Shown here: piece after piece, positions 1-20,636 of the stretch
How the letters are laid out: every line of letters begins with the position of its first letter
Position numbering within the stretch: the first letter of the stretch is position 1
Source: a virus
Lineage: Duplodnaviria > Caudoviricetes
Reading direction: 5' to 3' (one strand)
DNA length: 34,443 nucleotides
IMG/VR virus record: IMGVR_UViG_3300037991_001546
Location: 1 to 34,443 of that record
Program-made: the position numbers and the translations under genes
Notes under the pieces: model-generated
What the model saw: the letters and a program-made list of their open reading frames with translations, nothing else
What the model was told of the DNA's origin: nothing
Database searches by the model: none

Positions 1-78
1 ACGTTGTATGTTACATTTGTTAATGAGAACAAAACTGGTGGTCTTATTAGATTCTACCAAGAGTTGTTGTCACAGTAA
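1..78 (+). CDS. 3' end of a putative ubiquitin-like (beta-grasp) protein with GG motif and C-terminal extension (5'-truncated)
   Basis: Frame 1 reads TLYVTFVNENKTGG-LIRFYQELLSQ* (GG at 37-42, TAA 76-78). A hydrophobic strand followed by KxGG is typical of Ubl C-termini. It lies directly upstream of the E2-like, JAB and E1 genes. Not in the ORF track. Confidence 0.65.
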   Translation, partial: TLYVTFVNENKTGGLIRFYQELLSQ

Positions 79-176: not shown

Positions 177-2552
177 ATGAACCTAATTGAAAGATTCAAG
201 CAAGGTGGGATTGATACCTACTCATATAGTATGGACACTATGAAAAGAATGTTTACAGGTGAACAAATATCTAAAAGCATACTTGATGGTCCACAAAAAA
301 TACTTATGGAGAAAATCAATCAATTCAATAATGATTACATACGTACACGTTATTTGAATAGAAACAGAAGCATGTTAGAACCATTAGAAGATATTGGCTT
401 AACTGACAAGCTTAATTGGAAACGTGGTGTCACTAATACACTAGAAAAACTATTTGTTGAAAGAATACTACAGTTTGGCAAAGGTGGTAGTGTAGACTTA
501 AAGTTTGTGAGAAGACCAAACAATAGTGCATACCTAGGTGATCGAGCACGTAATGACTTAGATAGTGTCTGTAGAAGTCTAAAAAGAGTTAAAGACATGA
601 AAGGTGCTTGGAATGATACTGAAGAACGTAAAAAGCTAGAAGCATTTATTGACTTGTGCTTAGATACGTTCTTTAAAAACATTGATGAAGCAAATAATTA
701 CTTAAAAACTGTAAAAAGTATGCAATTTCTACCATATATTGTTAGCCTAAGAACAGGAAACAAAGAAAACATGATAGAAACGCCTACTGGATACAGAACT
801 GGTAAGTATTGGAGTGCATTAGATACATATAGTAGTTTACATAGAGAGTTAATTGTAGCATTACATATTAACAAACCTGATGTTAAGTATTATAATAGAG
901 ATAGAGAACACGTAGCAGATATTAGATCTGCACCTGTTACTTTGTTGTTTAGGTATCACATGTCATCTATGGTACAATGGTGGGTTAATTTATACTTTAA
1001 CTTGTACAAAGAAGATGGTAGTAACAATGAAATGATTGCTAATCAATTAGTTACAAACAATAGATCAATACCTAGAATGTTAAATGCAGATCCGTCAGTT
1101 TTGTGGGAAGGTGCTACTTACAGAGGTAGCCGTGGAAGTGATGAGCTTAACATAGAATACTTTAGAAACAGAAAAGCATTAGATGTTTCGTCTATATACC
1201 ACAATTACATGAATTCTACTGAGTATCCTTACATAGGTAGTCAAGATGGTTCTGGTTCTAAATACACATCTCTAAGTACAAAAGGATTTATGGAAAAACT
1301 ATTTAAAGACGTAGATAGTGACATAGATTACAGGCTTTCTCAAAGACTAATTGAGAAAAAGTATGGACATAGAGGCAGAAACCATGAACATATATATAGA
1401 TTGCAACATGAGTTACCTAGAAATCAATGTTTTGGTGACTTAAATGGTGAGATATATAACTGTGCTTCAACAGGTAACTTTATAGGTATGGTACCTTTAA
1501 TATCTAAATGGCAACATTACATAGAAGGTAGATCTAATCCACTACAAGGATTAAATAATTTACCACACATAATAACTACTGACTGGGACAGAACTATGAT
1601 TAGAAAAGTCGTAGGAAGTATAGATATTATGCGTAAAAACCACTTACTACAAAATGGTTTATGTTTCCAGTTAAATCACAATGTATACTATAGTGACTTT
1701 ATTAATCATGAAGCAGCATTTGGTGACATTGTAAGTATGTTAGATTACCACGCAGGAAATAACAATGAATTTATGTTTGATGCTAGAAACTGTGTAAGTA
1801 TGATAAAACATCAGTATCAAAAGTATGCTAATCAACAAGTTCCTCAGGACTTCGTAGAAACTACTAACTTTGATGGTTACTTTAATTACTCATATGTAAG
1901 AAGTAAACGATACGAGTCAAACAATATTGGATTGCACTCTGATAATCCAGAATGTATGTACAATACAGAAGGATTTAATGAACGATTTGTAACAGAGTTT
2001 TGTTTAGAAGCATACGATGAAAACTATGTTAAGGAAAAACAAAGAAGTCTAAAAGACATGAAATTAGCACTTGCAAACAAGTTAACTTCAGAGATGGAAG
2101 ACAAAGACGAAGCTTATGATGAATACTTAAAAGAGCTTCGTAGAATAATGTCTCCTGAAACATTTCCTGTTCAAGATAGATACGGCAGAAATGCAATGTT
2201 AACGTTGTTAGATTACTACACTTCTTGTAAACAAACATTAGATGAAATACACGAAGATGGTTTATTGACTGAAGAACACTCAAGTTCTTGGGAATCTATA
2301 AATAGATTTCATGATATAAACTATGATAAGTACGAAACATTTGAAATGTTTATAAGTGAAGTAATTAAATGTTACGTAATACCTAACATAGAAATTGTTG
2401 AAGAGCAAGTATCACAAGATATAGTAAGTGATACTATTGATGCTTTAATAGAACAACAAGAAGATAATTCTACCAACGGAAGATACGACTTTAGTACAGA
2501 AGAAGGTAGAGCATTATGGGCTCAACACATTAGGAACAGGAGGTCTAGATGA
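177..2552 (+). CDS. large hypothetical protein with candidate prokaryotic E2/UBC-like domain
   Basis: 791 aa with an AGGAG RBS. YPYIG (aa 350) and QCFGDL (Cys418, nt 1428-1430), followed by amphipathic helices and W..Y....SNP, recall the HPxI...CxG core of E2-like folds. Stop overlaps the JAB start. Confidence 0.5.
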   Translation: MNLIERFKQGGIDTYSYSMDTMKRMFTGEQISKSILDGPQKILMEKINQFNNDYIRTRYLNRNRSMLEPLEDIGLTDKLNWKRGVTNTLEKLFVERILQFGKGGSVDLKFVRRPNNSAYLGDRARNDLDSVCRSLKRVKDMKGAWNDTEERKKLEAFIDLCLDTFFKNIDEANNYLKTVKSMQFLPYIVSLRTGNKENMIETPTGYRTGKYWSALDTYSSLHRELIVALHINKPDVKYYNRDREHVADIRSAPVTLLFRYHMSSMVQWWVNLYFNLYKEDGSNNEMIANQLVTNNRSIPRMLNADPSVLWEGATYRGSRGSDELNIEYFRNRKALDVSSIYHNYMNSTEYPYIGSQDGSGSKYTSLSTKGFMEKLFKDVDSDIDYRLSQRLIEKKYGHRGRNHEHIYRLQHELPRNQCFGDLNGEIYNCASTGNFIGMVPLISKWQHYIEGRSNPLQGLNNLPHIITTDWDRTMIRKVVGSIDIMRKNHLLQNGLCFQLNHNVYYSDFINHEAAFGDIVSMLDYHAGNNNEFMFDARNCVSMIKHQYQKYANQQVPQDFVETTNFDGYFNYSYVRSKRYESNNIGLHSDNPECMYNTEGFNERFVTEFCLEAYDENYVKEKQRSLKDMKLALANKLTSEMEDKDEAYDEYLKELRRIMSPETFPVQDRYGRNAMLTLLDYYTSCKQTLDEIHEDGLLTEEHSSSWESINRFHDINYDKYETFEMFISEVIKCYVIPNIEIVEEQVSQDIVSDTIDALIEQQEDNSTNGRYDFSTEEGRALWAQHIRNRRSR

Positions 2553-3409
2553 GCGAGTTTAATATGAGTGGTAAAGATTGGGATAAAATCATTAACTACT
2601 CACACATAGCATGGGAGAAAGATAAATCTGAAATTGGTGGCATGATGATTGCTACTAAGGAAGGTAATGACTTTCTACTCAGTGATCCAGTTATACTAAA
2701 ACAGCAAGTTAGTGGAAGTAATACTGTACTAGATAAAGAAGCTTTAGCACAATATTATGGTAAAACAGCAATTAAGAATGCTGGTAAAGACATAATATTT
2801 GTATGGTGGCATAGTCATCATACTATGGCAGCTTTCTGGTCAGGCACTGACTTAGCAACTATTGACACTACTAAATCTGGTAGTGTCAGTATGTCTTTAG
2901 TAGTTAACTTGAAAGAAGAGTACTTATTTAGAGTGAACTTATGGGAACCAATAAAGGCACATAAAGATGTTAGTATTAACATTATAAGGCCTGAACGTAA
3001 AATACCTAAATCACTTTATAACGAGTATGATAAACTAGTTAGTGATATAGTAGTCACTAGGAAAGTAAATAAACCTAAGTTCAAGTATCAATACAACAGA
3101 ACATACAACCATCACTACAAATGGAACGACTTTAATAGTTTTCCTGACTTAAGTGATGATGAATATGTAGATGTAGAAGCTAAGGTAGATGATATGCTAT
3201 CTTTGTTTTATGTAGGTGAATTAGGTTACAAAAAGCTTAAGAAGCAAATTACTACTCTAAATAATAAACTTGCTAAAGATGATAGTGAGTTAAGAGTTGA
3301 ATTGCCTGCTAAGCCTATATTAGAAAGTGTAATAAAAAGTGGATACTTCGACAGACACGGAGCTTCTAAGTTAATAGTGTGTAATACTCAAGGAAAATTA
3401 CCATTATGA
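2549..3409 (+). CDS. JAB/MPN (JAMM) metallopeptidase, prokaryotic JAB family
   Basis: N-terminal EIGG glutamate plus WWHSHHTMAAFWSGTD, an exact HxH-x7-S-x2-D JAMM motif. About 130-aa C-terminal extension. Confidence 0.9.
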   Translation: MSEFNMSGKDWDKIINYSHIAWEKDKSEIGGMMIATKEGNDFLLSDPVILKQQVSGSNTVLDKEALAQYYGKTAIKNAGKDIIFVWWHSHHTMAAFWSGTDLATIDTTKSGSVSMSLVVNLKEEYLFRVNLWEPIKAHKDVSINIIRPERKIPKSLYNEYDKLVSDIVVTRKVNKPKFKYQYNRTYNHHYKWNDFNSFPDLSDDEYVDVEAKVDDMLSLFYVGELGYKKLKKQITTLNNKLAKDDSELRVELPAKPILESVIKSGYFDRHGASKLIVCNTQGKLPL

Positions 3410-3684
3410 AAGAAACATTAGCATACGATAAAAATCGTAATCCACTTAAACAAACAAAGTACCAATCTAAAGAATGGCCATTCAAAACAAAGAAATCTGC
3501 TACAAAAGCATTTGCTGAGTTTGAAAAGATCTATGGTCGTGGATGGTACTATTACGAGGGTTGGAATCCTGCTACATACAAGGAATTACCTTGGATAACA
3601 AGATTTCACCCTGATTACAAACTGTATTTAGCTTATAATAGGAGGAAAAAGCGTGAAAGACAGGTACGAAGGGATAGTAAATAA
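3406..3684 (+). CDS. hypothetical basic/aromatic protein within the Ubl operon
   Basis: 92 aa. ATGA overlap with the JAB stop; overlaps the E1 start. Confidence 0.7.
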   Translation: MKETLAYDKNRNPLKQTKYQSKEWPFKTKKSATKAFAEFEKIYGRGWYYYEGWNPATYKELPWITRFHPDYKLYLAYNRRKKRERQVRRDSK

Positions 3685-4330
3685 CTATCACAAATATACC
3701 TATCATATACTAGGTTGCGGTGCTATTGGTAGTGCCGCAGCTACTCAACTAGTTAGGATGGGTGCAACCAACATAGTCTTGTATGATATGGACACAGTTG
3801 GTGTAGAGAACATTGGTGTATCACAGTACAATACCAAGGATATTGGATTATTCAAAACAGCAGCACTAACAGAACATTTGCTATTTATTAATAGTGATAT
3901 AGACGTAGAACAAAAGTGTGGAAGATTTGATGCAAGTATGTGGTCTCCAAGACAAAATGCTACAAACGATGTAGTAATATTAGGTTTTGATAGTATGGAA
4001 GCTAGAAAAGAAGCTGCCGAAATAATACTAAAGAATGATAATCCAGCAGCTATGATAGATGGTAGAATGGGTGCTGAACATTATCACCAAATAGTACTTG
4101 AAAAACCAACATTAAGTAAGTATATTAAGCACTGGTATAGTGACGAAGATGGTGATCCAGAACCATGTAATGCAAAAGCTACAAGCTATTGTAGTAACAT
4201 GTCTGGTAGTTTTATCTCAGACACTATAAAGAAATTACTTACGGATAGTGTTTACTATAAAGAGTTATCATTTCACTTTCCTAGCTTAACAATGCGTAGA
4301 GCAGGATTAGTAGATAATAGTAAACAATAG
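3653..4330 (+). CDS. ThiF/MoeB/E1-family adenylyltransferase (Ubl-activating enzyme)
   Basis: ILGCGAIGS Gly-rich loop, YDMDTVGVENIGVSQ, conserved K, GFDS, DGRMG, and PC (EPCNAKAT) as candidate catalytic Cys. GTG start with AGGAGG RBS. No CxxC zinc pairs. Confidence 0.92.
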   Translation: MKDRYEGIVNNYHKYTYHILGCGAIGSAAATQLVRMGATNIVLYDMDTVGVENIGVSQYNTKDIGLFKTAALTEHLLFINSDIDVEQKCGRFDASMWSPRQNATNDVVILGFDSMEARKEAAEIILKNDNPAAMIDGRMGAEHYHQIVLEKPTLSKYIKHWYSDEDGDPEPCNAKATSYCSNMSGSFISDTIKKLLTDSVYYKELSFHFPSLTMRRAGLVDNSKQ

Positions 4331-5161: not shown

Positions 5162-5740
5162 ATGAAATTTAAAGGTAAAGAATATACTGAAGTAAAGGAT
5201 AGATTGTTTGGATTCTTATCTGAATATCCCCAAGCAACTATTAAAACAAAACTGATTTCAGTAGATCAGATCATAGACTCACCAAGCGGAGAACAATGTA
5301 ATGAATATATTGTACGTGCTAAGGTGATTCCTAATCCATTACAAGAACCAGAAATTTATTACACAGGCTATGCAGCTGAACGTGATAATACTGGTTTTGT
5401 AAATAAGACATCAGCATTAGAAAACTGTGAAACATCAGCTGTTGGTAGAGCATTAGCTTTTGCTGGATTTGGTGGTGACTTTGCTATAGCTTCTAAAGAA
5501 GAAGTTGACAATGCAAAGACAGCTGCTAAAAAATCAGCAGTAACAGTAGATATGCTTTCTAAGTTAGATGCTTTGTCTAAGAGAGTTAAATCACATATAG
5601 GTGAAGAACATTATCGTGTTTATGTAGAACGTAGATCTAATGGATATTACGATACTAAAGTTAGATACAATAAAACAATGGATTTCTTTACAAAATCTAT
5701 ACCTACAGAAAGTGAGGCTACAAATGTCAAACAAGGATAA
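5162..5740 (+). CDS. putative single-strand annealing recombinase (Rad52/Sak/ERF-like)
   Basis: YTEVKDRL...YP and ALENCETSAVGRALAFAGFG...AS.EE motifs as seen in phage annealing proteins. Located near SSB and primase-helicase. Confidence 0.65.
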   Translation: MKFKGKEYTEVKDRLFGFLSEYPQATIKTKLISVDQIIDSPSGEQCNEYIVRAKVIPNPLQEPEIYYTGYAAERDNTGFVNKTSALENCETSAVGRALAFAGFGGDFAIASKEEVDNAKTAAKKSAVTVDMLSKLDALSKRVKSHIGEEHYRVYVERRSNGYYDTKVRYNKTMDFFTKSIPTESEATNVKQG

Positions 5741-6000: not shown

Positions 6001-6543
6001 ATGGCAATTAGTGGTACAAAAGTTGCATCAAACAAGACAATTAAAAATTATTTTGTTAATGAATGCAAGATCACAGATGCAGAAGTCATGGATAGTCAAT
6101 ACACTGACATGAGCTTGAAGTTACAATTAGAAGATAAGAACAACGGGTACACATATACCTGCTTTGTTAACCAAAACTTCGAGAAAGATCATGCTGGTGT
6201 AGTTACAGATATGAAATATCCAACTGACTTGAACACACTATTCTTAGCAGCAGGAACAGATTTAAATGTTTCTGATGCAGGAGTATTAGCAACAAAATCT
6301 TTAGAAGGTTTAGTTGATAAAGAAGTAGCATGTATTACATACAGTTCTACTGGTAAATACAAACGTAATACATGGGGTGTTGTTTCTAGCCTTAGTAAGA
6401 AAGATGACTTAGAATCTCAGTTCGTAAAACAACTAGAAAAAGGTTATCCTAAAGACTATCAAAAACCTACAGTACAAGCAAAAGGATCAGATACAGTTGT
6501 AGTATCTGGTGAACAAGTTGCTGTAGATGATTTACCATTTTAA
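6001..6543 (+). CDS. putative single-stranded DNA-binding protein
   Basis: 180 aa, beta-rich, with a flexible tail ending DDLPF (the SSB C-terminal signature); replication context. Confidence 0.65.
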   Translation: MAISGTKVASNKTIKNYFVNECKITDAEVMDSQYTDMSLKLQLEDKNNGYTYTCFVNQNFEKDHAGVVTDMKYPTDLNTLFLAAGTDLNVSDAGVLATKSLEGLVDKEVACITYSSTGKYKRNTWGVVSSLSKKDDLESQFVKQLEKGYPKDYQKPTVQAKGSDTVVVSGEQVAVDDLPF

Positions 6544-10094: not shown

Positions 10095-13000
10095 TTAAAC
10101 GTCTTCAGCCTCTAAATTAGCTTCTATTTCGTCTAATTCAGTCTGTGCTTCAATTTGATCACGTCTTAAACTATGTATTCTATGTAATGGTATACCAGTC
10201 ATGAAGTCTACAGCCATAGCAGGACTTTGATACGTTCTATATAAATCTCTACCTAATCTACCAAATGGAAAATATGTTGCAAGTTGGAACTTATAAAAGT
10301 TTTCATAATCACCATTCAATATAGAAGTTATAGGAGGCAATATAAATCTTGCAACTGGTGGTGTAACAATTTGTAATGGTGCTAACACTTTACTAGGATA
10401 TTGATTAAAGAAAGCACGATCACGTTCTTCTGTATCACCAAACATCAATTGTGCAGTATCTTGCATCCATGACATTGGTGGTGATAAAGAATATTCAAAT
10501 ATACTAGCTACAAATATGTTAGCCATGGCTAATGCAAATAAATCAAAAGATACTTGTCTTTGAAATCTTTTACTTGCTATCTTAGTGTAATCAAAACCTA
10601 CATCTTTAGCATTTCTGTATATATCCATTCTTCTTCTAATACTATTCCAAGCATAAGGCTGGAATCTAGTAAGTACTCTACCTAAAGAAGTATTAGCAAA
10701 ATTAGGTCTTTCAGTAGCTTGATACAAGAACTGTGAAGCTTTAACACCTTCAAGAGAAAGTTTTATTAATCCAGGATTATTGAAAGACATTTTACTAGAA
10801 AATCCATCAGGAGTATTTAAAGTATTTTGTAAGTGAAATATCATGTGTGATAAGAATGTAGTACCTCTTAAGTGTCTTTCTGACTCTCTCATAAAGAAAG
10901 CACCCATATCTACAATAGACTCGTCAACTTTATATTCACGAATAAGATCCATCATAGTAGCATCTCTTAGTCTATCTCTACTTGTTTTAGTAACCATGTC
11001 ATAACCAGAGTTTCTAGCATCCATAAGTCTTTCACCAAACTCTTTTACTACCTTAAATGCATTCTTACGACCAAATACTTTTTCTATAGCTACTAATTGC
11101 AACTGAGTAGTATCAAATACACCAACACTACCATCCATCCAATTGAATATATCTTCTCTGGTTGTCATAGTTTTCTGTTCAATTTTTTTAGTGTCTGCAT
11201 TAAAAAACTCATATTTAGCAGTTTCCATTTGTCCAGTATCTTTGTTATACTCTCTAAATATGTTATTTAACATCCACTCAGTATTAAAAGACTTTCTTAC
11301 AGGATTTAAACCAACATCTGTAATTAAATTAGTATAACCACCTATAAAATTAGTAATTGGTGTTTTAGGTGCTGACAACAAACTAATTAATTCGTACTTA
11401 CCTTCTAAATTACTTAAGTATCTTAAGCCCTCATTCACTTGAGTTCTTTTTTGTGCAGGATCACTAGACAATTCACCAAATAACTTTGCACCAAATGCAT
11501 CATTAATAGTTTCCATTTTACGACCTACAGCATCATCACTAGTCATGTGGTATAAACTACCATATTTACCAGTTGTGTTGATTTGTGACAATAGCCGCTT
11601 CGCATTACGATTTATCTGCTTTATATACTCTGCATTGGCTTTAGTAACATTACCTCTATTTGACAAAAGGATGTTCGTCTTTTTTTGTGGAGATAACTCT
11701 ACTGCTTCTCTAAAATCATAAACTAAATCTAATTCTGCTTTTAATAAATTTAAACCTTTCGTTGAAAATTTATTATCTATAAATCTTTGATATAAAGGTA
11801 TATGTTTTTCTTGTATTCCATGTGTCTGTAAAGATCTATGTAAACTTAAACCCATCATGTTTAATCCAGCATCTCTTAAATACCCAGACCAACCTAATGC
11901 ATTAATATCATTTTCTACATTATTTACTTTATCAAATCTTTTTACAATAAGTTCAAGATTAATACCAGTAGTATTTGTTAAATGAGATTTTACTAAACCA
12001 CCAGCATATCTTCTTAATGCTTCTACATCCAATCTATAAAAAGGCATAACATAAGGACCTCTTTTATGCATATTACGATATGTATAATCTCCAATATATC
12101 TACTATCAGAAAGTTTATCTCTAGATAATAAATCATTTACTGTTATTTCATTAGCCATTTGTCCTTCTAATGCTGAGTTCATAAACTCTCTATTTTGTAA
12201 AGAAAGTTTTTCTGCTCTATATAGTTGTTTAGCCTCTGTAAAATTCAAAGGTCTACCTCTTTCTAAATCAGTAATTAACATTCTATTTGCAATATGTTCA
12301 GGTAGTTGAGATTTATCTGTTATAGTTTCCATTTCAGCATTTACTTTTCTAGTTAATTCTCTTTCAATTTTTTGAGCATTTTTAGAAATATCAGTATGTC
12401 CTACTCTAGGAAAATAACCTTCAGTAACTTTGTTTTGAAACAATTCTTTATAACTAGAATTTTTATTTAATCTATTTATAACTCTTTGTTTTAATTCTTT
12501 CTTTATTTTTGTAGGTAATTTTTCTGGTTTTGATAAGTCATAATTTTTATAAATTCCTTGCATTTCATCTCTTAATTTTAAATGATGTTTAAAAAATAAC
12601 ATATCATTATAAGATGGCATTAAAAACTGTGAAATCTCTCTGTTGTTAAATTGTCCTTCTATACTAGATCTTTTTAAACCACCTTCTCTAGTAGTATATG
12701 CTCCTTGATAATTCATAATAGAATCAAAGAAAGCTTTATATCTATCTTCTCTAAATATTCCAGTATTTTTATCTAAAAATATTTCTTCAAGTTTCATCAT
12801 TTCAAATTCTCTACCAAATGTTTTATCTGTTTTGAGTCTTTTAAATTCTTGCCCTGGTTTCCAAAGTTTAAAATCTTTATTCCAAGTACCTATGTGTAAA
12901 AAAGTTTCTTTAATATTTTTATGTCTAGATGCTATATAATTATCGTATACCCAATCTGTAAATGTTTTAATATCTTTTTTTAATTGTTGTGAAACAAATA

Positions 13001-16000
13001 CACTAGGTTTAACATTTTTACCTTTAAATTCTATTCTAGCTCCAGATTCATCTAACTTCTGAATTAATGCTTTAGATTCATTGTATTTTGTTTTTATATA
13101 ATTTTTACTTTCATAATCAATTTTTTCACCAGCTGGATATTTACCATTATTCCATTCTAAACTATTTACAGCATGTTCTTCAAGTAATTTTCTATGTTCT
13201 TGTAACGTAGCATCATCTTTTGTTAAATATTTAAACCAACCAGCATGTACTTTTTCTATATTATCTCTAGCTGCTTTTGTAATAGTGTCTGTAAAGTCTA
13301 CATGATTTTTCATTAAATGTAATGGTGACATAGGTTGTTTCATATATTCTGCTTTAATTTCACCGTTAGCCATCATTTTATTTTCTAGTATAGGTTGTAA
13401 TTCTAATTCACTCATAAATCCTAATCTATCACCTACTATGTCATAAAAATACATATGGTCTCTACCACGTGGTTTTTCTTTAAACTTACCATCTTTAGTT
13501 ATTAAATCTTTCATAGGAGTAAAAGATCTTTTTAATTGTCCTATAAAATTAACCATATCTTTACTATCCATAGTAGAAATATCTCTCATTACACCTTCAC
13601 CTTTTTTAGTAAATGCTGCAAAATAATAATCTAAATTAGGTAATACTTGAGGATATTCTTCTAATATTTTTCTAAATTCTTTTAATACAATTTCATTTTC
13701 AGGAGTAGTAGGCTCTAATATATTTTTATCTAATCTTTCTAGGTATTTATGTTGATCTTTAAAAACTCTTTTAATTGTTTTAACTGCTTGTTCTTTTTCA
13801 GTATTAGGATCTCGTTTACTTTCTTTAAACTTTTTAGCTAAATCTTTACGTGTTTCATTAGCTATTTGTCTTTTAGATGTTTTAACACCAAATAAACCAT
13901 CTACATCACTTATTATAGTTTCACCTATTTTTTTACCACTGCTATCGTTAATAACTTTAATTTTTACTTTTTGCTTTTGTATATCAGCTTCAACTTCTTT
14001 AGCTTTTTTACGAACTATTTTAGGTTGATTCATTGTATTAATATCAAGTATTTGATCTCCAGAAAAACTTTCTGTTAATGCTTCTATGTATGCTTGCGTT
14101 TTTTTAGGTACACGCATTTTTTTATTCATAGCCTCTAGGCCTTGTTCTATAATACCTTTTTTTAAATCTAATAAAGCTTGTCTATTTTCTGGAGTTACAA
14201 CTTTTGATCTGTCAAAAAACGGAACCCTATTGTATAATATAGCTTCTGCTTGTTCTCTTTTTCTTATCCATCTTTGCATCAATTCTGGATTTTGAGTAGC
14301 TCCCATTTTATTTGTATCATAATCTTTGTAAGAAACTTCAACTACTTGATCTTTATTTAAATTTTTAGTTGTTCCTTCTATAAATCTATTAGCATCACTT
14401 ATTATTTTAAACAACTGTTCTGTTGTTTTATTTTTCATTTCTTTAAATCTAAATCTAGGATTTGCTGATAAATATGAATCTATAATTAAATCAATATCTT
14501 TTATAAAAGGTTTATATGCTGGAACTTTTCTATATCTAGCACGTATTTTTAATAGTTCTTGATTAACCCATTTATAGTCTAATTTACCTCTTTCTACATT
14601 AAAGCCACTTCTATCTCTAAATACATTAGCACTATAGTAAAAAGATTCTTTAATACTATTTACTTGGGATTGTATATCTTTTACTAATGTAAATGCTTCA
14701 TCAACGCTTAGTTCTGTCATTCTGCTTTTACCTACTTTAGTAATAAATACATCAGATACATAATCAGCTACATTTAAATCTAAAGCATTGTGAAAATGTT
14801 GCTCTATGTTTCTAGTAGGAGTTAATGCTAAGGTGTTATATTTTTTATCACCAATAGCTTTTAATTCTTTAAATAAATGATTACCAGGTCTTTTTAAAGA
14901 ATATATAGCATCTATTTCATTTCTATAACCAGGTATTAATCCATACTTATCATAGTATTTACTATTTAATAATCTAGTATTTAATTCTGTAGTCATTTGT
15001 AATACAAAATCATATGGCTCTATAGCATTAGTATTTAAATGATCAAAACCTCTAGAAATAGATTTAATATAATCGAAAGACTGTATTCCCCAATCCATTC
15101 TAGAAGAAAGTTTTTGTGCTACATTATATGTTTGCAAGTCGTATCTAAAGTCTGCATTATTTACAAACTCATTTATAACTCTAGGTGAATTGTTTATTTC
15201 AGCAATAGTAGGTTGACCGTAAAGTAAATGATATGTCTCTGCTAAATTTTCTAATTCTCTTATTTTTGTTATATCAATATATTTAGTTTTCTTTTCTCTT
15301 GTTACTGGCTTTGTTCTTCTAGAAGAGGTTGCATCTCCCCATGAAATTTCTGATAATTTACTTACATTTTCAAAAACACCTTTTTCATTTTGAACTTGTA
15401 ATTGAAAATATCTACTCCAAGTTAATTCACTTAATGTAAAATTGTCTGGTACATTTAAATATTTAGGACTATCAGCATATCCGTTTTTAGCTTTTAAAGA
15501 TTCTACTTCAAATTGCTTTAAAAGTTTAAGGTAATCTTGTATATTAGTAGAGTTCATAATATTACCTTCTCCGTCTTTTAAAACTATTCTATGTTTTTTA
15601 ATTCCATCGTAATTTTTGTTAGTGTTTACTTCTACTAACATATAAGGAACTTCTCTTGAAGGTTCTGTAATTTTAGTATTAATAATTGCATCCATAACTT
15701 TTATTTGTCTATCTAATGCATTTACTGCACCACCCATAGCTTCTTTACCTATAAATGCACTTCTACCAGCCTCTATTCTTTTATATGGATCTATAATGTC
15801 TTTTAAAACGTCATTAGATGTTTTTGGTGCATACTCTACAAAGTATCCTAAATCTGTTAAAAACTTAGGAGGCGTTTCTAAATTAATTAAATTACCTTTT
15901 TCATCTCTTAAATAATCTCTATTATTTCTAAATTCTTTATTTAATTCTTTAGGTATATTATAATGTACAAATGCTTCGTCAAAATCATTATCTGCACCAT

Positions 16001-19000
16001 CCATGTAAAACTTTTCTTTTGCATTTACATATATACCTATACCTGGTTTATCAACAAATCCACCAAATTCAGGAACTCTAGCACCACTTACACCACTATT
16101 AGGAACACGCAACAATGTTTGTTCATTTAATACATTTTTAATATTTATTGCTTCTGTTTTAGTTAACTTAGTTAAACGTAACATATCCCAAGCTTGCCCT
16201 AATGTTTTTATAGCAGGTATTCCTTCTACTCTAACAGGTTTCGATCTAGCATCTCTACCTAACATCCATGCATTTTCACCAACACCAGTTGTTATTTTAT
16301 TAGGACCTTGATTTTCTCTACGTTGATGCACAGACAATTCTTCTGCATTTAATCCCATTAAAGGTGCTTGAAATCCTTGTGGATCTCTAGGTTTAACATT
16401 TCTAGTTACTATAAATCTAAATAAAGCTTTGTTTATGTAATCTTTATAAGGATGTCTACCAAAAACAAGAGGATCATAATTGTTCATGTTTAATATTTCA
16501 GAAATCTGATAATTTTCTTGAATAGCTTCTCTCATTGCTGAGTTTTGTCCAGGCTCCCACATAGCAGTACTTAAATCATTTTCATTAGCTTCTACTATCT
16601 TTTTTAATACTTTTTTAAATGTAGGGTTATTTATACCACCTCTAGTAGTATCATTTTTCATTTCTATAATTACTTCTTCAGGAACTCTAAAAACATCAAA
16701 GTCACGTGTTATTTCTTTTCCAGACCTAAAACTATTTATTAACTCTATACCTAACTGTGGATCTCCTTCATTACTACTACGTATCCACTCATTAACTTCT
16801 CTATCTAAATTTTCTGCACGTGTTGGGTCTTCTGTTCTAATTTTTGCCATAGAAACAGAATCGTATAATTGTTTACCAGGACTTATTCCTTTATTAAAAT
16901 GTGAAGAATCTTCTCTTACACCTAAATCTATATAAGTTTCATTCCAATTATAGTCTACTACTTCCTTTGGTGTTAATGGTTTATCTGTATAATACTCACC
17001 TTTTTTAGCATCCCATTTCAATTCTACGGCATTAAAATTACCTTTATTTGTTTTACCACCAGATTCATAAATAACGTGATGTATAGGAAATCCTCTTTGC
17101 ATTTGATCAAACATCCATTTGTCTAAAGCTTTACTTGCAATTTCAGAACCTATTTTATTTTTAAGTAAATTAACTCCGTTTCTAGGACCTCTAAAAAAAG
17201 TTAATTTCATTTTACCGTCTGTTTTATCTATGTAATATCTATTTGCCATAGATTTAAATACGTCAGATCTAACACTATGAACTGAATCAGTATTACCAAG
17301 CATTATTTCACCATGTACTTCACCTGGTATATCTTTTAAATAAACTACTCCCATTTTTTGTTTAGAGTCTGTTATTCTGTGATCTTTAGCATTCATAGGT
17401 ATATTAGTACCTATATCCATAGCTGCGTATTTATTATACTCTACTACATCTTTATAATTTAATTTTTGATTATTATTAGCACGTAATTCTGCTATTCCAT
17501 CTAAAATATTATCTACTTTTAGTTTACCATGCCCCTTTAAACCTCTTAAAGTGTGCTCTCTTAGCAAGTAATAGGTGTTAGCCATATATACCTGACGGTT
17601 TGTTTCTGTTATGTTCTTAAAACCTATTTTTTCTAATATTTTTATTTGATCTGTTCTAGATAAATAATTAGTCTCATTAGGGAATTTATCTTGTATTGGC
17701 AAAGGTTCTACTAAAACTACTCCTTTATCTTTCAAAGCTTTAGAAACATAGAAACCGTCTTTTATAAGCTTTGTATTTATAGCATCTAATGCTTTTTCAT
17801 TTAATGTAAATTCATATTCAGCTTTACCACGTGAATCTAGTTTAGTTCTATAACTATGAGTTAAAATTTTATCGTATTGTAATTTATATATACCTGGAGC
17901 ATCTATACCTAGTTGTTTTTTGCTAAACATAGTACCAGTACGTTTATCATACTGAACGTCTGATATAACATAAGACACATCTTCTATAGTACCTTTTACA
18001 TGTTTATCGTGTTTATTTTCACTTCTGTATTTAACTAATATAGTTCCATCTATATCTTCACTAGGAAATTTTTGTTTACCAAAACCTTCTTTAGAAGTAT
18101 ATCCCCCTTTAAAAGGATTTAAATCTTGAATACCATGGTCTGTTTGTTCTTCTAAATTCTTTTTTATTAATAAGCCTCTACCTAATTCTTGACGTATATT
18201 TGTAGGTAAAGTAATTCCATATTTTTCTATTTTTTGAAAAAACTCTATATCAGTTTTTGCTTTTTCTGCAATATTGTTTAAATCTAATTTAACTTTTGTG
18301 TAATCTAATTTACTGTCATTATTTAATAAATAGTTAATAGCAGTTTCTAAAGGTCTTTTTAATATTGTTTTAGATGACTGCTCAGAAGAAACAGCTTCAA
18401 TATTTTCATTAGCCATTGATATTTCGTTTTTATAATCTCCTAATCTTTCTTGTGCAAAATCTTTTGTATTTTTAGGTTGTTTCGGTATAGAAGCAACTAC
18501 TTCATTTGGATTATCTACATTTGCATCAAAAACTGGTTTTTGTACAGTTCCTTCTAAAGATTTGTCTACTACATAATCAACATAGTCTTCATAGTTTTTC
18601 CAAGTTTTATTACCTGGTACTCTATCATTACCATGTCCTGCAATATTTAATGTAGGTTTTTTACCTATTTTTTTTGTTACATCTTCTATAAACTGACGTA
18701 ATTGTTTTGCTTCAGCATCTGCTCTTTTTTTACTTGTTAATCCTTTTGTAATAATAATATGAGGTTTAAATCCTGCCATAAACCTACCACTAGACAATGT
18801 TTGTGACGATGAACCATTTTTCCATATACCTTCAGAAGCATAACCTATTGTTCTGTTTGTACCAGCACTTTTATCTATATGTTCTGGTCTTGCAAAAATT
18901 ACAGTTGCATCTGTATTCTCTATGTTTCTTATAGTTCTATTAGCATAATCTTCTGGAGCAAACTCTCTATCACCTCTTTCTGTTCTTCTAGTAATAGGTT

Positions 19001-20636
19001 CTGTAACTCTTTCAACTCCATAATCTTTTACTAATTTATCTTTAGCTTTTTTAGATCCAGTAATTTTTGTTTTAAAATCAGACGTTACAAATCCACCAGT
19101 TTTTATACCTTTACGTTTAGCAGATTTTAAACCTCCATAATCAGCACCAGATTGCATACCTGAAAATATAGATTCTACTATAGTGCTTTTAGTTTCTATT
19201 CCAGCATTTTTATTATATATTTTTTTTACAGTTTCTTGTTTACCTTCACCTATTTCAGGAGCCTGTACATTAACACCTTCTTTTTTTACTGATATTTTTT
19301 TAGGAGTTTTAACTTTTTCTTTTATATGCTCTGCACGATCTATTATAATTTTATCTTCTACACTTATAGGTTTAGTTAAATCTATATTTCTTTCTGCAGC
19401 TATATCTTTAACAGTTTGAGATACTTGTTGCATAAAACTAGGTTTTTGACTATTTATAACATTTAATTGTTGAACTCTAACAGAGTCTAAATAACTATCT
19501 ATATAATCTCTATCTACTTTAGGTAACGATTGGTACTCTGGATCTTTTCTCCATTTTTCTTTTACTGTAGTTATGTTTTCATTGCTAGGAAAATATCTAT
19601 CATTAATAAATTTAGTTCTATTCATAAACCCAGCAGATTTAGCTGAAGCACCAAAGAAGAAACCTAATAGATATTCATATATTTGATCTGGTAATGGTGC
19701 CCCTCTTAATGTAGTCATACCACCTTGAAAAGATGCCCCTAATGTACCTTTAATAAGCATTTCTACAGCTTCGTATTTATTAGGGTCTTGATATAATTGT
19801 CTTGAAGCTAATTTTACAGCTTCTCTACCCATTTGTACTGTGTCTTTATTACGTAACATATCACCAATACGTACATAATTACCTATACTACCAAACACAG
19901 CTCCTGCTGCTGCACCGTGCATAGTAGCATCTAACATAGCTTTAGGGCCTTCTTTCCAAGAAGATACTCCTAATGCTACACCTAAATGAACTGCTTGTGT
20001 TGCTGCATTTCTTACAGAAGCTTTACCAAATAATCCTTTTGTTAAAAATCCTTTACTTAGCAATGCAGTAGATCCTATAGCACTTTGTGTTTGTTCTAAA
20101 ACTTTATCAGCAACCATCATAGGTACTGATTGTAAAGCAAATGTGTTAGGTGATATTTCTTTTCTTAATAAAGGAGGTGCTTTAGATGCAACTTTAGATA
20201 TACCTTCTCTTACTGCTTTACTACTTTGTCTAGCTGCTTGTTTTGCTTGTGCTATAGGTATCCATCTACCACCACTTATAACACTAGCAATAATATCAGG
20301 TGCAAAACCTAATAAGTGACCAAACTGATTTGCTATTCTTTCTGATGTAGTGTCTGCTTCTTCAGCCCAACCTAAGGTAGTAAAACCTTCTACAACACCA
20401 GAAGTAAATTGATTAACTACAGATAATATATTTGAACCAGACTTATCAAGATCACGATTCCACTTAATATCATATTTTTTATGTTGTTTTTCTATATAAT
20501 CAAGATCTTCTTCACTAAAAAGATTAGGTTTCATACGATAAGAAGTATCTAATCTTTTAAGATATTCTTCTGGATTAATTATACCAGTAGTTAATAGGTT
20601 GTCAATATAACCTATCTGTGTATTCGTTGTTGCCAT
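10095..20636 (-). CDS. giant virion (ejection) polyprotein with cpYpsA/SLOG domain and two-barrel DNA-dependent RNA polymerase
   Basis: 3513 aa. SLOG motifs SGMQSGADYGGL...TGG, Y..RT..NI..TDATVIF, S.GT..T and LNIAG (about aa 490-680). RNAP-like motifs TD, K...K, SGGK, LLRVP and GADNDFD (aa 1549-1553 = DNDFD). Helical C-terminus (RP......GR...F..Y) like large ejection proteins. Last gene of the structural block. Confidence 0.75.
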   Translation of the reverse strand: MATTNTQIGYIDNLLTTGIINPEEYLKRLDTSYRMKPNLFSEEDLDYIEKQHKKYDIKWNRDLDKSGSNILSVVNQFTSGVVEGFTTLGWAEEADTTSERIANQFGHLLGFAPDIIASVISGGRWIPIAQAKQAARQSSKAVREGISKVASKAPPLLRKEISPNTFALQSVPMMVADKVLEQTQSAIGSTALLSKGFLTKGLFGKASVRNAATQAVHLGVALGVSSWKEGPKAMLDATMHGAAAGAVFGSIGNYVRIGDMLRNKDTVQMGREAVKLASRQLYQDPNKYEAVEMLIKGTLGASFQGGMTTLRGAPLPDQIYEYLLGFFFGASAKSAGFMNRTKFINDRYFPSNENITTVKEKWRKDPEYQSLPKVDRDYIDSYLDSVRVQQLNVINSQKPSFMQQVSQTVKDIAAERNIDLTKPISVEDKIIIDRAEHIKEKVKTPKKISVKKEGVNVQAPEIGEGKQETVKKIYNKNAGIETKSTIVESIFSGMQSGADYGGLKSAKRKGIKTGGFVTSDFKTKITGSKKAKDKLVKDYGVERVTEPITRRTERGDREFAPEDYANRTIRNIENTDATVIFARPEHIDKSAGTNRTIGYASEGIWKNGSSSQTLSSGRFMAGFKPHIIITKGLTSKKRADAEAKQLRQFIEDVTKKIGKKPTLNIAGHGNDRVPGNKTWKNYEDYVDYVVDKSLEGTVQKPVFDANVDNPNEVVASIPKQPKNTKDFAQERLGDYKNEISMANENIEAVSSEQSSKTILKRPLETAINYLLNNDSKLDYTKVKLDLNNIAEKAKTDIEFFQKIEKYGITLPTNIRQELGRGLLIKKNLEEQTDHGIQDLNPFKGGYTSKEGFGKQKFPSEDIDGTILVKYRSENKHDKHVKGTIEDVSYVISDVQYDKRTGTMFSKKQLGIDAPGIYKLQYDKILTHSYRTKLDSRGKAEYEFTLNEKALDAINTKLIKDGFYVSKALKDKGVVLVEPLPIQDKFPNETNYLSRTDQIKILEKIGFKNITETNRQVYMANTYYLLREHTLRGLKGHGKLKVDNILDGIAELRANNNQKLNYKDVVEYNKYAAMDIGTNIPMNAKDHRITDSKQKMGVVYLKDIPGEVHGEIMLGNTDSVHSVRSDVFKSMANRYYIDKTDGKMKLTFFRGPRNGVNLLKNKIGSEIASKALDKWMFDQMQRGFPIHHVIYESGGKTNKGNFNAVELKWDAKKGEYYTDKPLTPKEVVDYNWNETYIDLGVREDSSHFNKGISPGKQLYDSVSMAKIRTEDPTRAENLDREVNEWIRSSNEGDPQLGIELINSFRSGKEITRDFDVFRVPEEVIIEMKNDTTRGGINNPTFKKVLKKIVEANENDLSTAMWEPGQNSAMREAIQENYQISEILNMNNYDPLVFGRHPYKDYINKALFRFIVTRNVKPRDPQGFQAPLMGLNAEELSVHQRRENQGPNKITTGVGENAWMLGRDARSKPVRVEGIPAIKTLGQAWDMLRLTKLTKTEAINIKNVLNEQTLLRVPNSGVSGARVPEFGGFVDKPGIGIYVNAKEKFYMDGADNDFDEAFVHYNIPKELNKEFRNNRDYLRDEKGNLINLETPPKFLTDLGYFVEYAPKTSNDVLKDIIDPYKRIEAGRSAFIGKEAMGGAVNALDRQIKVMDAIINTKITEPSREVPYMLVEVNTNKNYDGIKKHRIVLKDGEGNIMNSTNIQDYLKLLKQFEVESLKAKNGYADSPKYLNVPDNFTLSELTWSRYFQLQVQNEKGVFENVSKLSEISWGDATSSRRTKPVTREKKTKYIDITKIRELENLAETYHLLYGQPTIAEINNSPRVINEFVNNADFRYDLQTYNVAQKLSSRMDWGIQSFDYIKSISRGFDHLNTNAIEPYDFVLQMTTELNTRLLNSKYYDKYGLIPGYRNEIDAIYSLKRPGNHLFKELKAIGDKKYNTLALTPTRNIEQHFHNALDLNVADYVSDVFITKVGKSRMTELSVDEAFTLVKDIQSQVNSIKESFYYSANVFRDRSGFNVERGKLDYKWVNQELLKIRARYRKVPAYKPFIKDIDLIIDSYLSANPRFRFKEMKNKTTEQLFKIISDANRFIEGTTKNLNKDQVVEVSYKDYDTNKMGATQNPELMQRWIRKREQAEAILYNRVPFFDRSKVVTPENRQALLDLKKGIIEQGLEAMNKKMRVPKKTQAYIEALTESFSGDQILDINTMNQPKIVRKKAKEVEADIQKQKVKIKVINDSSGKKIGETIISDVDGLFGVKTSKRQIANETRKDLAKKFKESKRDPNTEKEQAVKTIKRVFKDQHKYLERLDKNILEPTTPENEIVLKEFRKILEEYPQVLPNLDYYFAAFTKKGEGVMRDISTMDSKDMVNFIGQLKRSFTPMKDLITKDGKFKEKPRGRDHMYFYDIVGDRLGFMSELELQPILENKMMANGEIKAEYMKQPMSPLHLMKNHVDFTDTITKAARDNIEKVHAGWFKYLTKDDATLQEHRKLLEEHAVNSLEWNNGKYPAGEKIDYESKNYIKTKYNESKALIQKLDESGARIEFKGKNVKPSVFVSQQLKKDIKTFTDWVYDNYIASRHKNIKETFLHIGTWNKDFKLWKPGQEFKRLKTDKTFGREFEMMKLEEIFLDKNTGIFREDRYKAFFDSIMNYQGAYTTREGGLKRSSIEGQFNNREISQFLMPSYNDMLFFKHHLKLRDEMQGIYKNYDLSKPEKLPTKIKKELKQRVINRLNKNSSYKELFQNKVTEGYFPRVGHTDISKNAQKIERELTRKVNAEMETITDKSQLPEHIANRMLITDLERGRPLNFTEAKQLYRAEKLSLQNREFMNSALEGQMANEITVNDLLSRDKLSDSRYIGDYTYRNMHKRGPYVMPFYRLDVEALRRYAGGLVKSHLTNTTGINLELIVKRFDKVNNVENDINALGWSGYLRDAGLNMMGLSLHRSLQTHGIQEKHIPLYQRFIDNKFSTKGLNLLKAELDLVYDFREAVELSPQKKTNILLSNRGNVTKANAEYIKQINRNAKRLLSQINTTGKYGSLYHMTSDDAVGRKMETINDAFGAKLFGELSSDPAQKRTQVNEGLRYLSNLEGKYELISLLSAPKTPITNFIGGYTNLITDVGLNPVRKSFNTEWMLNNIFREYNKDTGQMETAKYEFFNADTKKIEQKTMTTREDIFNWMDGSVGVFDTTQLQLVAIEKVFGRKNAFKVVKEFGERLMDARNSGYDMVTKTSRDRLRDATMMDLIREYKVDESIVDMGAFFMRESERHLRGTTFLSHMIFHLQNTLNTPDGFSSKMSFNNPGLIKLSLEGVKASQFLYQATERPNFANTSLGRVLTRFQPYAWNSIRRRMDIYRNAKDVGFDYTKIASKRFQRQVSFDLFALAMANIFVASIFEYSLSPPMSWMQDTAQLMFGDTEERDRAFFNQYPSKVLAPLQIVTPPVARFILPPITSILNGDYENFYKFQLATYFPFGRLGRDLYRTYQSPAMAVDFMTGIPLHRIHSLRRDQIEAQTELDEIEANLEAEDV

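Follow-up and report, generated by a model that had tools for sequence, protein, structure and literature searches.

A predicted multidomain E2 in a phage ubiquitin-like cassette, with variable inserts as candidate target selectors

The virus record IMGVR_UViG_3300037991_001546 (34,443 nucleotides, G+C ~32%), taken here in its entirety as the window, carries a cassette of four genes in the order ubiquitin-like protein (Ubl), E2 candidate, JAB peptidase and E1, followed by replication genes. The same order is found on L001, a near-identical IMG/VR contig reaching 7.8 kb further upstream than the window. We focus on the second gene, whose 791-amino-acid (aa) product had been proposed, from the letters alone, to be a divergent E2 with a large insertion and with flanks that may act as a built-in E3 or adaptor. 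Comparative sequence and modelling data indicate that this protein is very probably a divergent catalytic E2. The fuller account, in which it acts within a phage Ubl cassette, hands the tag from Cys418 directly to a target lysine with no separate E3 and selects its own targets, is given a rough probability of 0.58. No recognisable E3 is present in the cassette, which comprises the following open reading frames (ORFs):

1..78, plus strand: 3' end of the Ubl gene; the complete gene is found at L001:7615-7902
177..2552, plus strand: 791-aa predicted multidomain E2; ATG start, no family match, assigned on motif conservation and fold models
2549..3409, plus strand: JAB/JAMM peptidase with motif WWHSHH; Pfam Prok-JAB E 7.6e-5, under its cut-off; 4-base overlap with the E2 stop codon
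3406..3684, plus strand: 92-aa ORF; pairwise E 6e-4 to L007:4907-5098
3653..4330, plus strand: single-domain ThiF-type E1, 225 aa; Pfam ThiF E 1.7e-20 and PDB E1 matches

Conserved motifs and predicted fold of the 791-aa protein

Since the 791-aa protein has no family match and direct protein searches returned few relatives (a single relative in one, 33 matches including the query in another), relatives were gathered by synteny. With the JAB as query, 269 viral stretches were found, and the best 80 were kept to give 81 loci together with L001 (L001 and L002 being one contig). At 55 of these 81 loci, a complete ORF of at least 400 aa lies directly upstream of the JAB gene, yielding 48 distinct proteins picked by position and not by likeness. 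Many of the 81 loci are cut short upstream, three (L017, L046 and L074) were missed by the distance filter and added later, and at L068 and L070 the E2 gene sits 3.3 kb away. A larger set, extended by 31 extra loci and database proteins, contains 121 complete matches that reduce to 79 homologues under 90% identity. The family ranges in size from 419 to 835 aa. Six viral proteins of 423-592 aa, which match the window model at E < 1e-8 in a structure search, are probably family members.

The motifs and regions of the 791-aa protein, all on the plus strand, are located as follows:

207..617: N-terminal region, aa 11-147, a first helix and then a helical hairpin domain, mildly basic; conserved G38-P39, N51, T76, W81, G84 and R/K139
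618..1577: predicted UBC (E2) fold, aa 148-467, broken by inserts; 17/17 core rows in the VIA structure search
963..1175: variable insert 1 (aa 263-333), separating the main beta-sheet from the last strand; length 0-105 across the 79 homologues and 71 here, median identity 0.14
1224..1238: YPYIG, family [HFY]-P-[YF]-I, at the place of the E2 HPN motif (alignment of 79)
1239..1421: hypervariable insert 2 (aa 355-415), separating the HPY motif from the cysteine; length 1-64, 61 here, median identity 0.08
1428..1430: Cys418, predicted catalytic (thioester) cysteine; 48/48 and 79/79
1509..1544: W445..Y448....S-N-P-L (family T-x-P-L-N), UBC-like core end; W445 77/79, P455 79/79, L456 70/79
1578..2486: C-terminal region, aa 468-770, predicted helical and acidic; low confidence (predicted local distance difference test, pLDDT, 33-65)
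2487..2549: terminal E-x5-W helix; E775 52/79, W781 46/79, and F-[STN]-T-E-E-G-R-x2-W-x2-H-I-R in the four closest relatives

The landmarks named in the original prediction are all present. YPYIG occupies aa 350-354 and CFGDL begins at Cys418, with Y350 and C418 separated by 68 residues (about 65 had been claimed), and W445-x2-Y448-x4-S453-N454-P455-L456 comes after two predicted helices. Among the 48 proteins chosen by position, C418 and P455 are invariant, P351 and G420 are found in 47 and W445 in 46. As position alone determined the choice of these proteins, retention of C418 in every one of them lifts the motifs beyond chance. The 79 homologues give the same picture, with C418 and P455 in all of them, P351 and G420 in 78, W445 in 77 and L456 in 70. 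Cys418 is thus invariant although the beta-sheet part of the protein has a median pairwise identity of just 0.14 (compared with 0.27 for both the N-terminal region and the catalytic segment, and 0.08 for insert 2).

In canonical eukaryotic-type UBC domains (Pfam UQ_con), the HPN motif lies ~10 residues before the catalytic cysteine. This spacing is not seen in the phage family, in which the distance from position 350 to the cysteine runs from 15 to 71 residues (median 30) in 78 homologues, the N-truncated P0006 being excluded. With 68 residues the window protein is among the longest; hence, its spacing is read as an insertion at a length-variable site, in keeping with the divergent E2 that had been proposed. 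Position 350 itself is His in 44 of the homologues, Phe in 24 and Tyr in 10, with Tyr in the window protein, and position 352 is Tyr (49) or Phe (29) in 78/79. Following C418, no His column reaches 50% or more among the 48 position-chosen proteins.

Models were obtained by AlphaFold for the window protein (50-row alignment, mean pLDDT 65) and for residues 1-399 of a compact 463-aa relative, L094 (78-row alignment, pLDDT 82, predicted template modelling score 0.76). In an exhaustive VIA search with the window model, all 17 rows spanning the core are either E2 by title (13) or chains that we take to be RWD-type (4), at Z 4.2-5.0. The match to UbcH10 has Z 5.0 and a root-mean-square deviation (rmsd) of 3.8 over 126 residues. 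For the L094 model, 34 of the 37 core-spanning rows belong to the UBC superfamily, 23 of them E2 or UEV by title and 11 others presumably RWD/UEV chains. Its best match is the Tsg101 UEV domain (Z 6.8, rmsd 3.6 over 133), tied within 1 by UbcH7 (Z 5.9, rmsd 3.4 over 128), while Cap2 is aligned at Z 5.0 and rmsd 4.3 over 129. Taken together, both models align to E2, UEV and RWD domains over 110-145 residues at rmsd 3.3-5 and Z 4.2-6.8, which is consistent but middling. In both, the last strand is followed by the HP motif and then by the conserved cysteine. The predicted UBC fold is therefore assigned from the consistency of the VIA rows together with motif order and gene context, and not from one strong match. 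A complex prediction for the L094 E1 dimer with its E2 (score 0.02, mark 0.32) was used as evidence neither way.

Inserts and terminal regions

The flanks were originally thought to be regions of about 300 aa with no recognisable relationship. On the N-terminal side this has to be reduced by half: the UBC match starts near aa 148-165, its helix and beta-sheet being covered by aa ~148-349, so that the true N-terminal addition amounts to ~145 aa, the other ~200 residues being E2 helix, sheet and one insert. The N-terminal region is well conserved (G38, N51 and G84 each 76/79, T76 74/79) with pLDDT mostly 80-96. The best structural matches align from model residue 10-15 onward, with the first helix on the N-terminal end of the UBC/UEV chain, and leave out the hairpin that comes next. 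This suggests the first helix packs on the UBC fold, with the hairpin (~100 aa) inserted into the fold after it. Being as conserved as the catalytic segment and apparently integrated with the fold, the N-terminal addition would suit a partner that stays constant better than a target that varies. Structural matches of the hairpin to Avd of diversity-generating retroelements, an SSV19 tail protein and CFP10-ESAT6 (Z 4.5-5.6) were discounted as no more than generic helical hairpins.

The two inserts interrupt the fold on either side of the last strand. Insert 1 has low pLDDT at aa 297-324, and insert 2, the least conserved part of the protein, is our best candidate for a target selector by analogy with the bacterial enzyme BilB. 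PMC10557695 describes a divergent BilB loop between strand 4 and the catalytic cysteine, proposed to select targets without an E3.

Beyond the core, 42 of the 79 homologues contain a C...C-x2-4-C-x5-6-C module, one lacks only its first cysteine and 36 are without the module. In its place, a long acidic region predicted to be helical is present in the window protein and in the proteins nearest to it (P0003, L003 and P0006). The C-terminal region varies in length from 131 to 404 aa across homologues, with module exchange. The acidic C-terminus of the original description holds for aa 626-770 (net -0.13 per residue) but not for the last 21 aa, which are slightly basic. Most family members end with an acidic stretch and an E-x5-W helix, the latter a candidate docking motif.

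A RING domain is defined by an eight-ligand cross-brace pattern of Cys and His. The Cys4 module is no RING because four ligands do not make one, and the window protein lacks even those, having 6 scattered Cys after aa 458 and no close-spaced motif. A RING search of 4 phage records gave 0 matches with the controls silent too, and is hence uninformative. Whole-model structure searches, in which the C-terminal model is of low confidence, listed no HECT, U-box, RBR or SH3-type match for the flanks.

Proposed cascade, target choice and alternatives

A cognate Ubl and E1 are kept in the same order around an E2 candidate with Cys418 at the expected place in 79/79 homologues, and this is the basis on which a working cascade is argued. 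The Ubl (95 aa, ThiS/MoaD-type) ends in ...NKTGG plus an 11-residue extension, as expected for a predicted pro-form. The GG is present in 30/30 Ubls (picked by eye, so partly circular). In the proposed mechanism, JAB would first trim the pro-Ubl after KTGG, as the extensions and the Bil peptidase BilC suggest. The single-domain E1 would then activate the Ubl by adenylation and carry it on Cys172 or Cys180, two of the invariant residues in a 49-sequence alignment (R4, GCGAIGS, D136, C172 and C180; no CxxC zinc sites). Transfer to Cys418, to which invariance and fold point, would be followed by discharge onto a lysine of a target picked by the E2 itself. Target choice would most likely involve the two variable inserts beside the active site (aa 355-415 and aa 263-333) as well as the exchangeable C-terminal module, including its acidic tail and the helix at its end, with the conserved N-terminal hairpin acting as a structural or constant-partner element (for E1, self or nucleic acid). 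Specificity is read as likely built into the E2 in this way, through inserts and C-terminal module and not the N-flank, because the BilB loop is a proposed selector and insert 2, at the same position, is the least conserved segment. If specificity is indeed built in, the inserts and C-terminal module are likely better candidates than the N-flank.

Because the replication genes follow directly after the cassette, a protein inside the cell, tagged early in infection, is the likeliest target. Whether this is a host takeover or defence protein is a guess at even odds, with the phage's own replication proteins a less favoured choice. Two ORFs lying after the cassette and before the primase-helicase, of 192 aa (phrog_11717; 5162-5740) and 180 aa (6001-6543), are candidate targets encoded by the phage itself; the latter ends in DDLPF, which we take to be a tail like that of single-stranded DNA-binding proteins. 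We tentatively extend the account to a wider picture, itself rather doubtful, in which widespread marine phages run their own Ubl conjugation with an E2/E3 hybrid of constant core (N-terminal hairpin and UBC fold) and exchangeable target-selecting parts (the active-site inserts and a Cys4 or helical C-terminal module that ends in a docking helix), used offensively against host defence or housekeeping proteins as the mirror image of Bil.

Several results weigh against a catalytic E2 that selects its own targets. No E2 family was found for the 791-aa protein in Pfam, PHROG, NCBIfam and PADLOC searches. The Pfam families UQ_con and Prok-E2 A-E gave nothing for the protein or its parts, and do not appear among the best 25 of 27 families listed for 50 members at E <= 0.1. 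The comparison with known E2 structures suggested by the original prediction is divided: the VIA rows are E2, UEV or RWD domains at Z 4.2-6.8, but Foldseek against the PDB returned nothing at E <= 0.001 for either model, with no E2 listed for the window model, including in a second look at the Foldseek result by VIA. The top three Foldseek rows for L094 are Cap2 (E 0.14 and 0.18) and Tsg101 UEV, with Ubc13 and Ube2W also near the top, none of them significant. All Z scores are below 8, in a range that the tool says may reflect a common arrangement alone, and inactive UEV/RWD domains head the structural matches. The HPN asparagine is missing and its His is not kept, being Tyr here. Neither flank matched a known E3 or substrate-binding domain in the family and structure searches. 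Among 15 close variants (93-100% identical, most rows near-identical), no sign of diversifying selection is seen and insert 2 has no hot spot of change, although one would be expected if the target were in a fast arms race. Furthermore, at L020:1375-2714 the Ubl adjoins JAB and E1 with no E2 between, and no E2 match occurs in that 27.8-kb record (estimated 57% complete). Finally, the small ORFs around the cassette could be separate adaptors.

This last point belongs to the best placed of the alternatives, an unlikely though substantial one, in which the protein is a catalytic E2 whose extra domains are a scaffold (for stability, oligomerisation or E1 docking), with targets reached via a small adaptor, a host factor or promiscuous conjugation. 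Conservation of the N-terminal region at the level of a core element would fit a scaffold, as would an E1 that has no extra domain for E2 docking (49-sequence alignment), and BilB/BilD conjugation is non-specific in E. coli according to PMC10557695. The 92-aa ORF, inside the cassette, is similar to small ORFs that precede the Ubl in L007 and, judged by eye, in L018 and L019; it is a mobile part of the cassette region and could serve as an adaptor. In 10 of the 55 loci (L021, L026, L027, L028, L030, L031, L041, L044, L045 and L052), the start of the E2 gene is overlapped by a small zinc-ribbon-like ORF with a CxxC...CxxC pattern. Within 800 nucleotides, those 10 loci showed no Ubl, and the two such ORFs tested have no Pfam match. 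On the other hand, the small ORFs are not universal and change place around the cassette, and a C-terminal region of 131-404 aa with module exchange is more than a plain scaffold needs.

A sulfur relay is improbable. Here the MoaD/ThiS-like protein would form a thiocarboxylate, the large protein would be a sulfur acceptor or modifying enzyme, and the Cys4 module an Fe-S site. The partner genes do lean this way: the Ubl profile matches MoaD (E 8.5e-4), the nearest solved relatives being the sulfur carriers MoaD/ThiS, which also counts against a tagging role; the best NCBIfam matches of the E1, under cut-off, are ThiF; and C-x2-C-x5-C variants of the Cys4 module presumably resemble Fe-S staple motifs. 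Against this, neither a rhodanese nor a cysteine desulfurase or synthase was seen beside the cassette in the window, a UBC fold is predicted for the large protein, and the Cys4 module is absent from 36/79 homologues, the window protein included.

A dead end or decoy, either a UEV-like binder or a terminal tag acceptor that jams host ubiquitin-like defence while JAB strips host tags, would suit the missing HPN asparagine and the fact that the top structural matches (Tsg101/Vps23 UEV, Knl1 RWD) are catalytically inactive domains, but is improbable given a cysteine at the expected place in 79/79 proteins and a cognate Ubl and E1 kept in order, which point to an own-tag cascade.

Relation to known systems and neighbouring genes

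Among known systems, the cassette is closest to the bacterial Bil systems (BilABCD, types I and II; PMC10557695, PMC11601596). The order Ubl-E2-JAB-E1 is the same in both, the pro-Ubl extends past the glycine, the E2 loop diverges just before the catalytic cysteine, and no E3 is present. In contrast, the phage cassette is virus-encoded whereas Bil is a host defence operon. Its E1 is a 225-aa single domain rather than IAD-AAD-CYS, and its E2, of 419-835 aa with N- and C-terminal additions, has no sequence match to BilB and lacks the conserved His that BilB has after the cysteine.

The CBASS protein Cap2 shares a homodimer-type E1 domain and heads the Foldseek rows for L094; it is an E2-E1 fusion, whereas the phage E1 and E2 are separate genes with a dedicated Ubl and no CD-NTase seen. 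Class 6d and PRTRC systems likewise have separate Ubl, JAB, E1-like and E2-like genes, but in class 6d a His following the E2 cysteine is absolutely conserved (PMC1779556), and the phage E2 lacks it. For PRTRC, the NCBIfam scores are far under cut-off (JAB 17 vs 102 bits, E1 31 vs 145). Bub combines Ubl, E2-like, JAB and E1 parts, but with Ser/Tyr oxyesters, fused genes and DUF6527 (PMC11601596), whereas the phage E1 and E2 keep invariant cysteines. Hence, by analogy, the cassette may work like Bil yet falls outside it on E1 architecture, E2 histidine and location, and outside Bub and PRTRC/6d too.

Among eukaryotic proteins, the E2/E3 hybrids UBE2O and BIRC6 are also very large E2s with extra domains and an acidic region (PMC12818219). 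Their UBC domains occur among the L094 VIA rows (Z 4.8-5.7), tied with ordinary E2s. No SH3-like domains were detected in the phage E2, and we regard the likeness as analogy, not kinship. The closest structural counterparts are the Tsg101/Vps23 UEV domains (Z 6.0-6.8); almost all of the UEV chain is aligned, and the first helix of the model falls on its N-terminus. UEV domains lack a catalytic cysteine, whereas the phage family has an invariant one, together with a predicted hairpin insertion of ~100 aa behind the first helix.

The literature searched, with supplements outside its scope, gave no account of a Ubl-E2-JAB-E1 cassette in a phage, though an earlier mention is possible. Term searches of main texts turned up no phage-encoded system for PMC11601603 or PMC11354881, and neither ThiF nor ubiquitin nor JAB for two crAss papers (PMC7886860, PMC6235969). 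The nearest report concerns E1-like genes in Asgard viruses thought to rely on host E2 and Ubl (10.1101/2021.07.29.454249). Prokaryotic E1-E2-Ubl conjugation has so far been characterised as host anti-phage defence (Bil and CBASS Cap2, with Bub proposed). In this family the predicted cascade is encoded by the phage and has a minimal E1. With a fixed E2 core and variable inserts and tail, the 79 natural variants would allow E2-encoded specificity to be probed by swapping domains.

A cassette of the same order, with Ubl-like ORF, ~420-aa protein, JAB and ThiF, occurs in the Flavobacterium phage Fpv3 (L114:2610-6621) and the crAss-like cr111_1 (L115:2761-6636). Judged by eye, their Ubl-like ORFs end …QVKSGG or …KIRSG plus a long extension. 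The ~420-aa protein has the motif HSH..C[LI]G..W..LEGGPY and 74 tblastn matches, including the cultured crAss001 and DAC15. Without a profile match, the Fpv3 and cr111_1 proteins were not counted as homologues of the E2 family. It is possible that crAss001 and DAC15, which have the same-order cassette with this different protein in the E2 position, open the biology to study in an infection model.

Regarding the partner genes, Pfam ThiS matches 11/30 Ubls, the L001 Ubl not among them. JAB proteins are typically 279-325 aa, with ~130 extra C-terminal residues past the peptidase domain. A helical ORF of 130-180 aa with motif RDNL.E..EE..D (L001:7134-7622) precedes the Ubl in the window clade and many relatives, and has no family match.

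Other searches with the 791-aa protein gave no usable match in the ESM Atlas, none in an annotated phage collection, and only itself and one relative in a word-index protein search. The best hit of PDB profile searches, a coiled coil at E 0.18, was rejected. Two narrow pattern scans of genomes gave 0 and 1 matches, the latter a short 3.9-kb contig from a metagenome-assembled genome that matches phage locus L024. Sequencing runs holding the window are labelled marine or seawater metagenome, or carry a coded organism. In two RNA runs from a single study, short contigs reach into the E2 gene; their share is small and they were rejected as evidence.

The record is viral by gene content (terminase, lysozyme, primase-helicase) and is not a bacterial defence island. 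Family searches show that the window also encodes a primase-helicase, resolvase, GroES, lysozyme and a 3513-aa ORF (10095-20636, minus strand). A PDB phmmer search with the 3513-aa protein was without matches. It contains a cpYpsA SLOG domain and the motif LRVPNSG...GADNDFD, which is reminiscent of the double-psi-barrel motifs of RNA polymerases, presumably as in virion polymerases.

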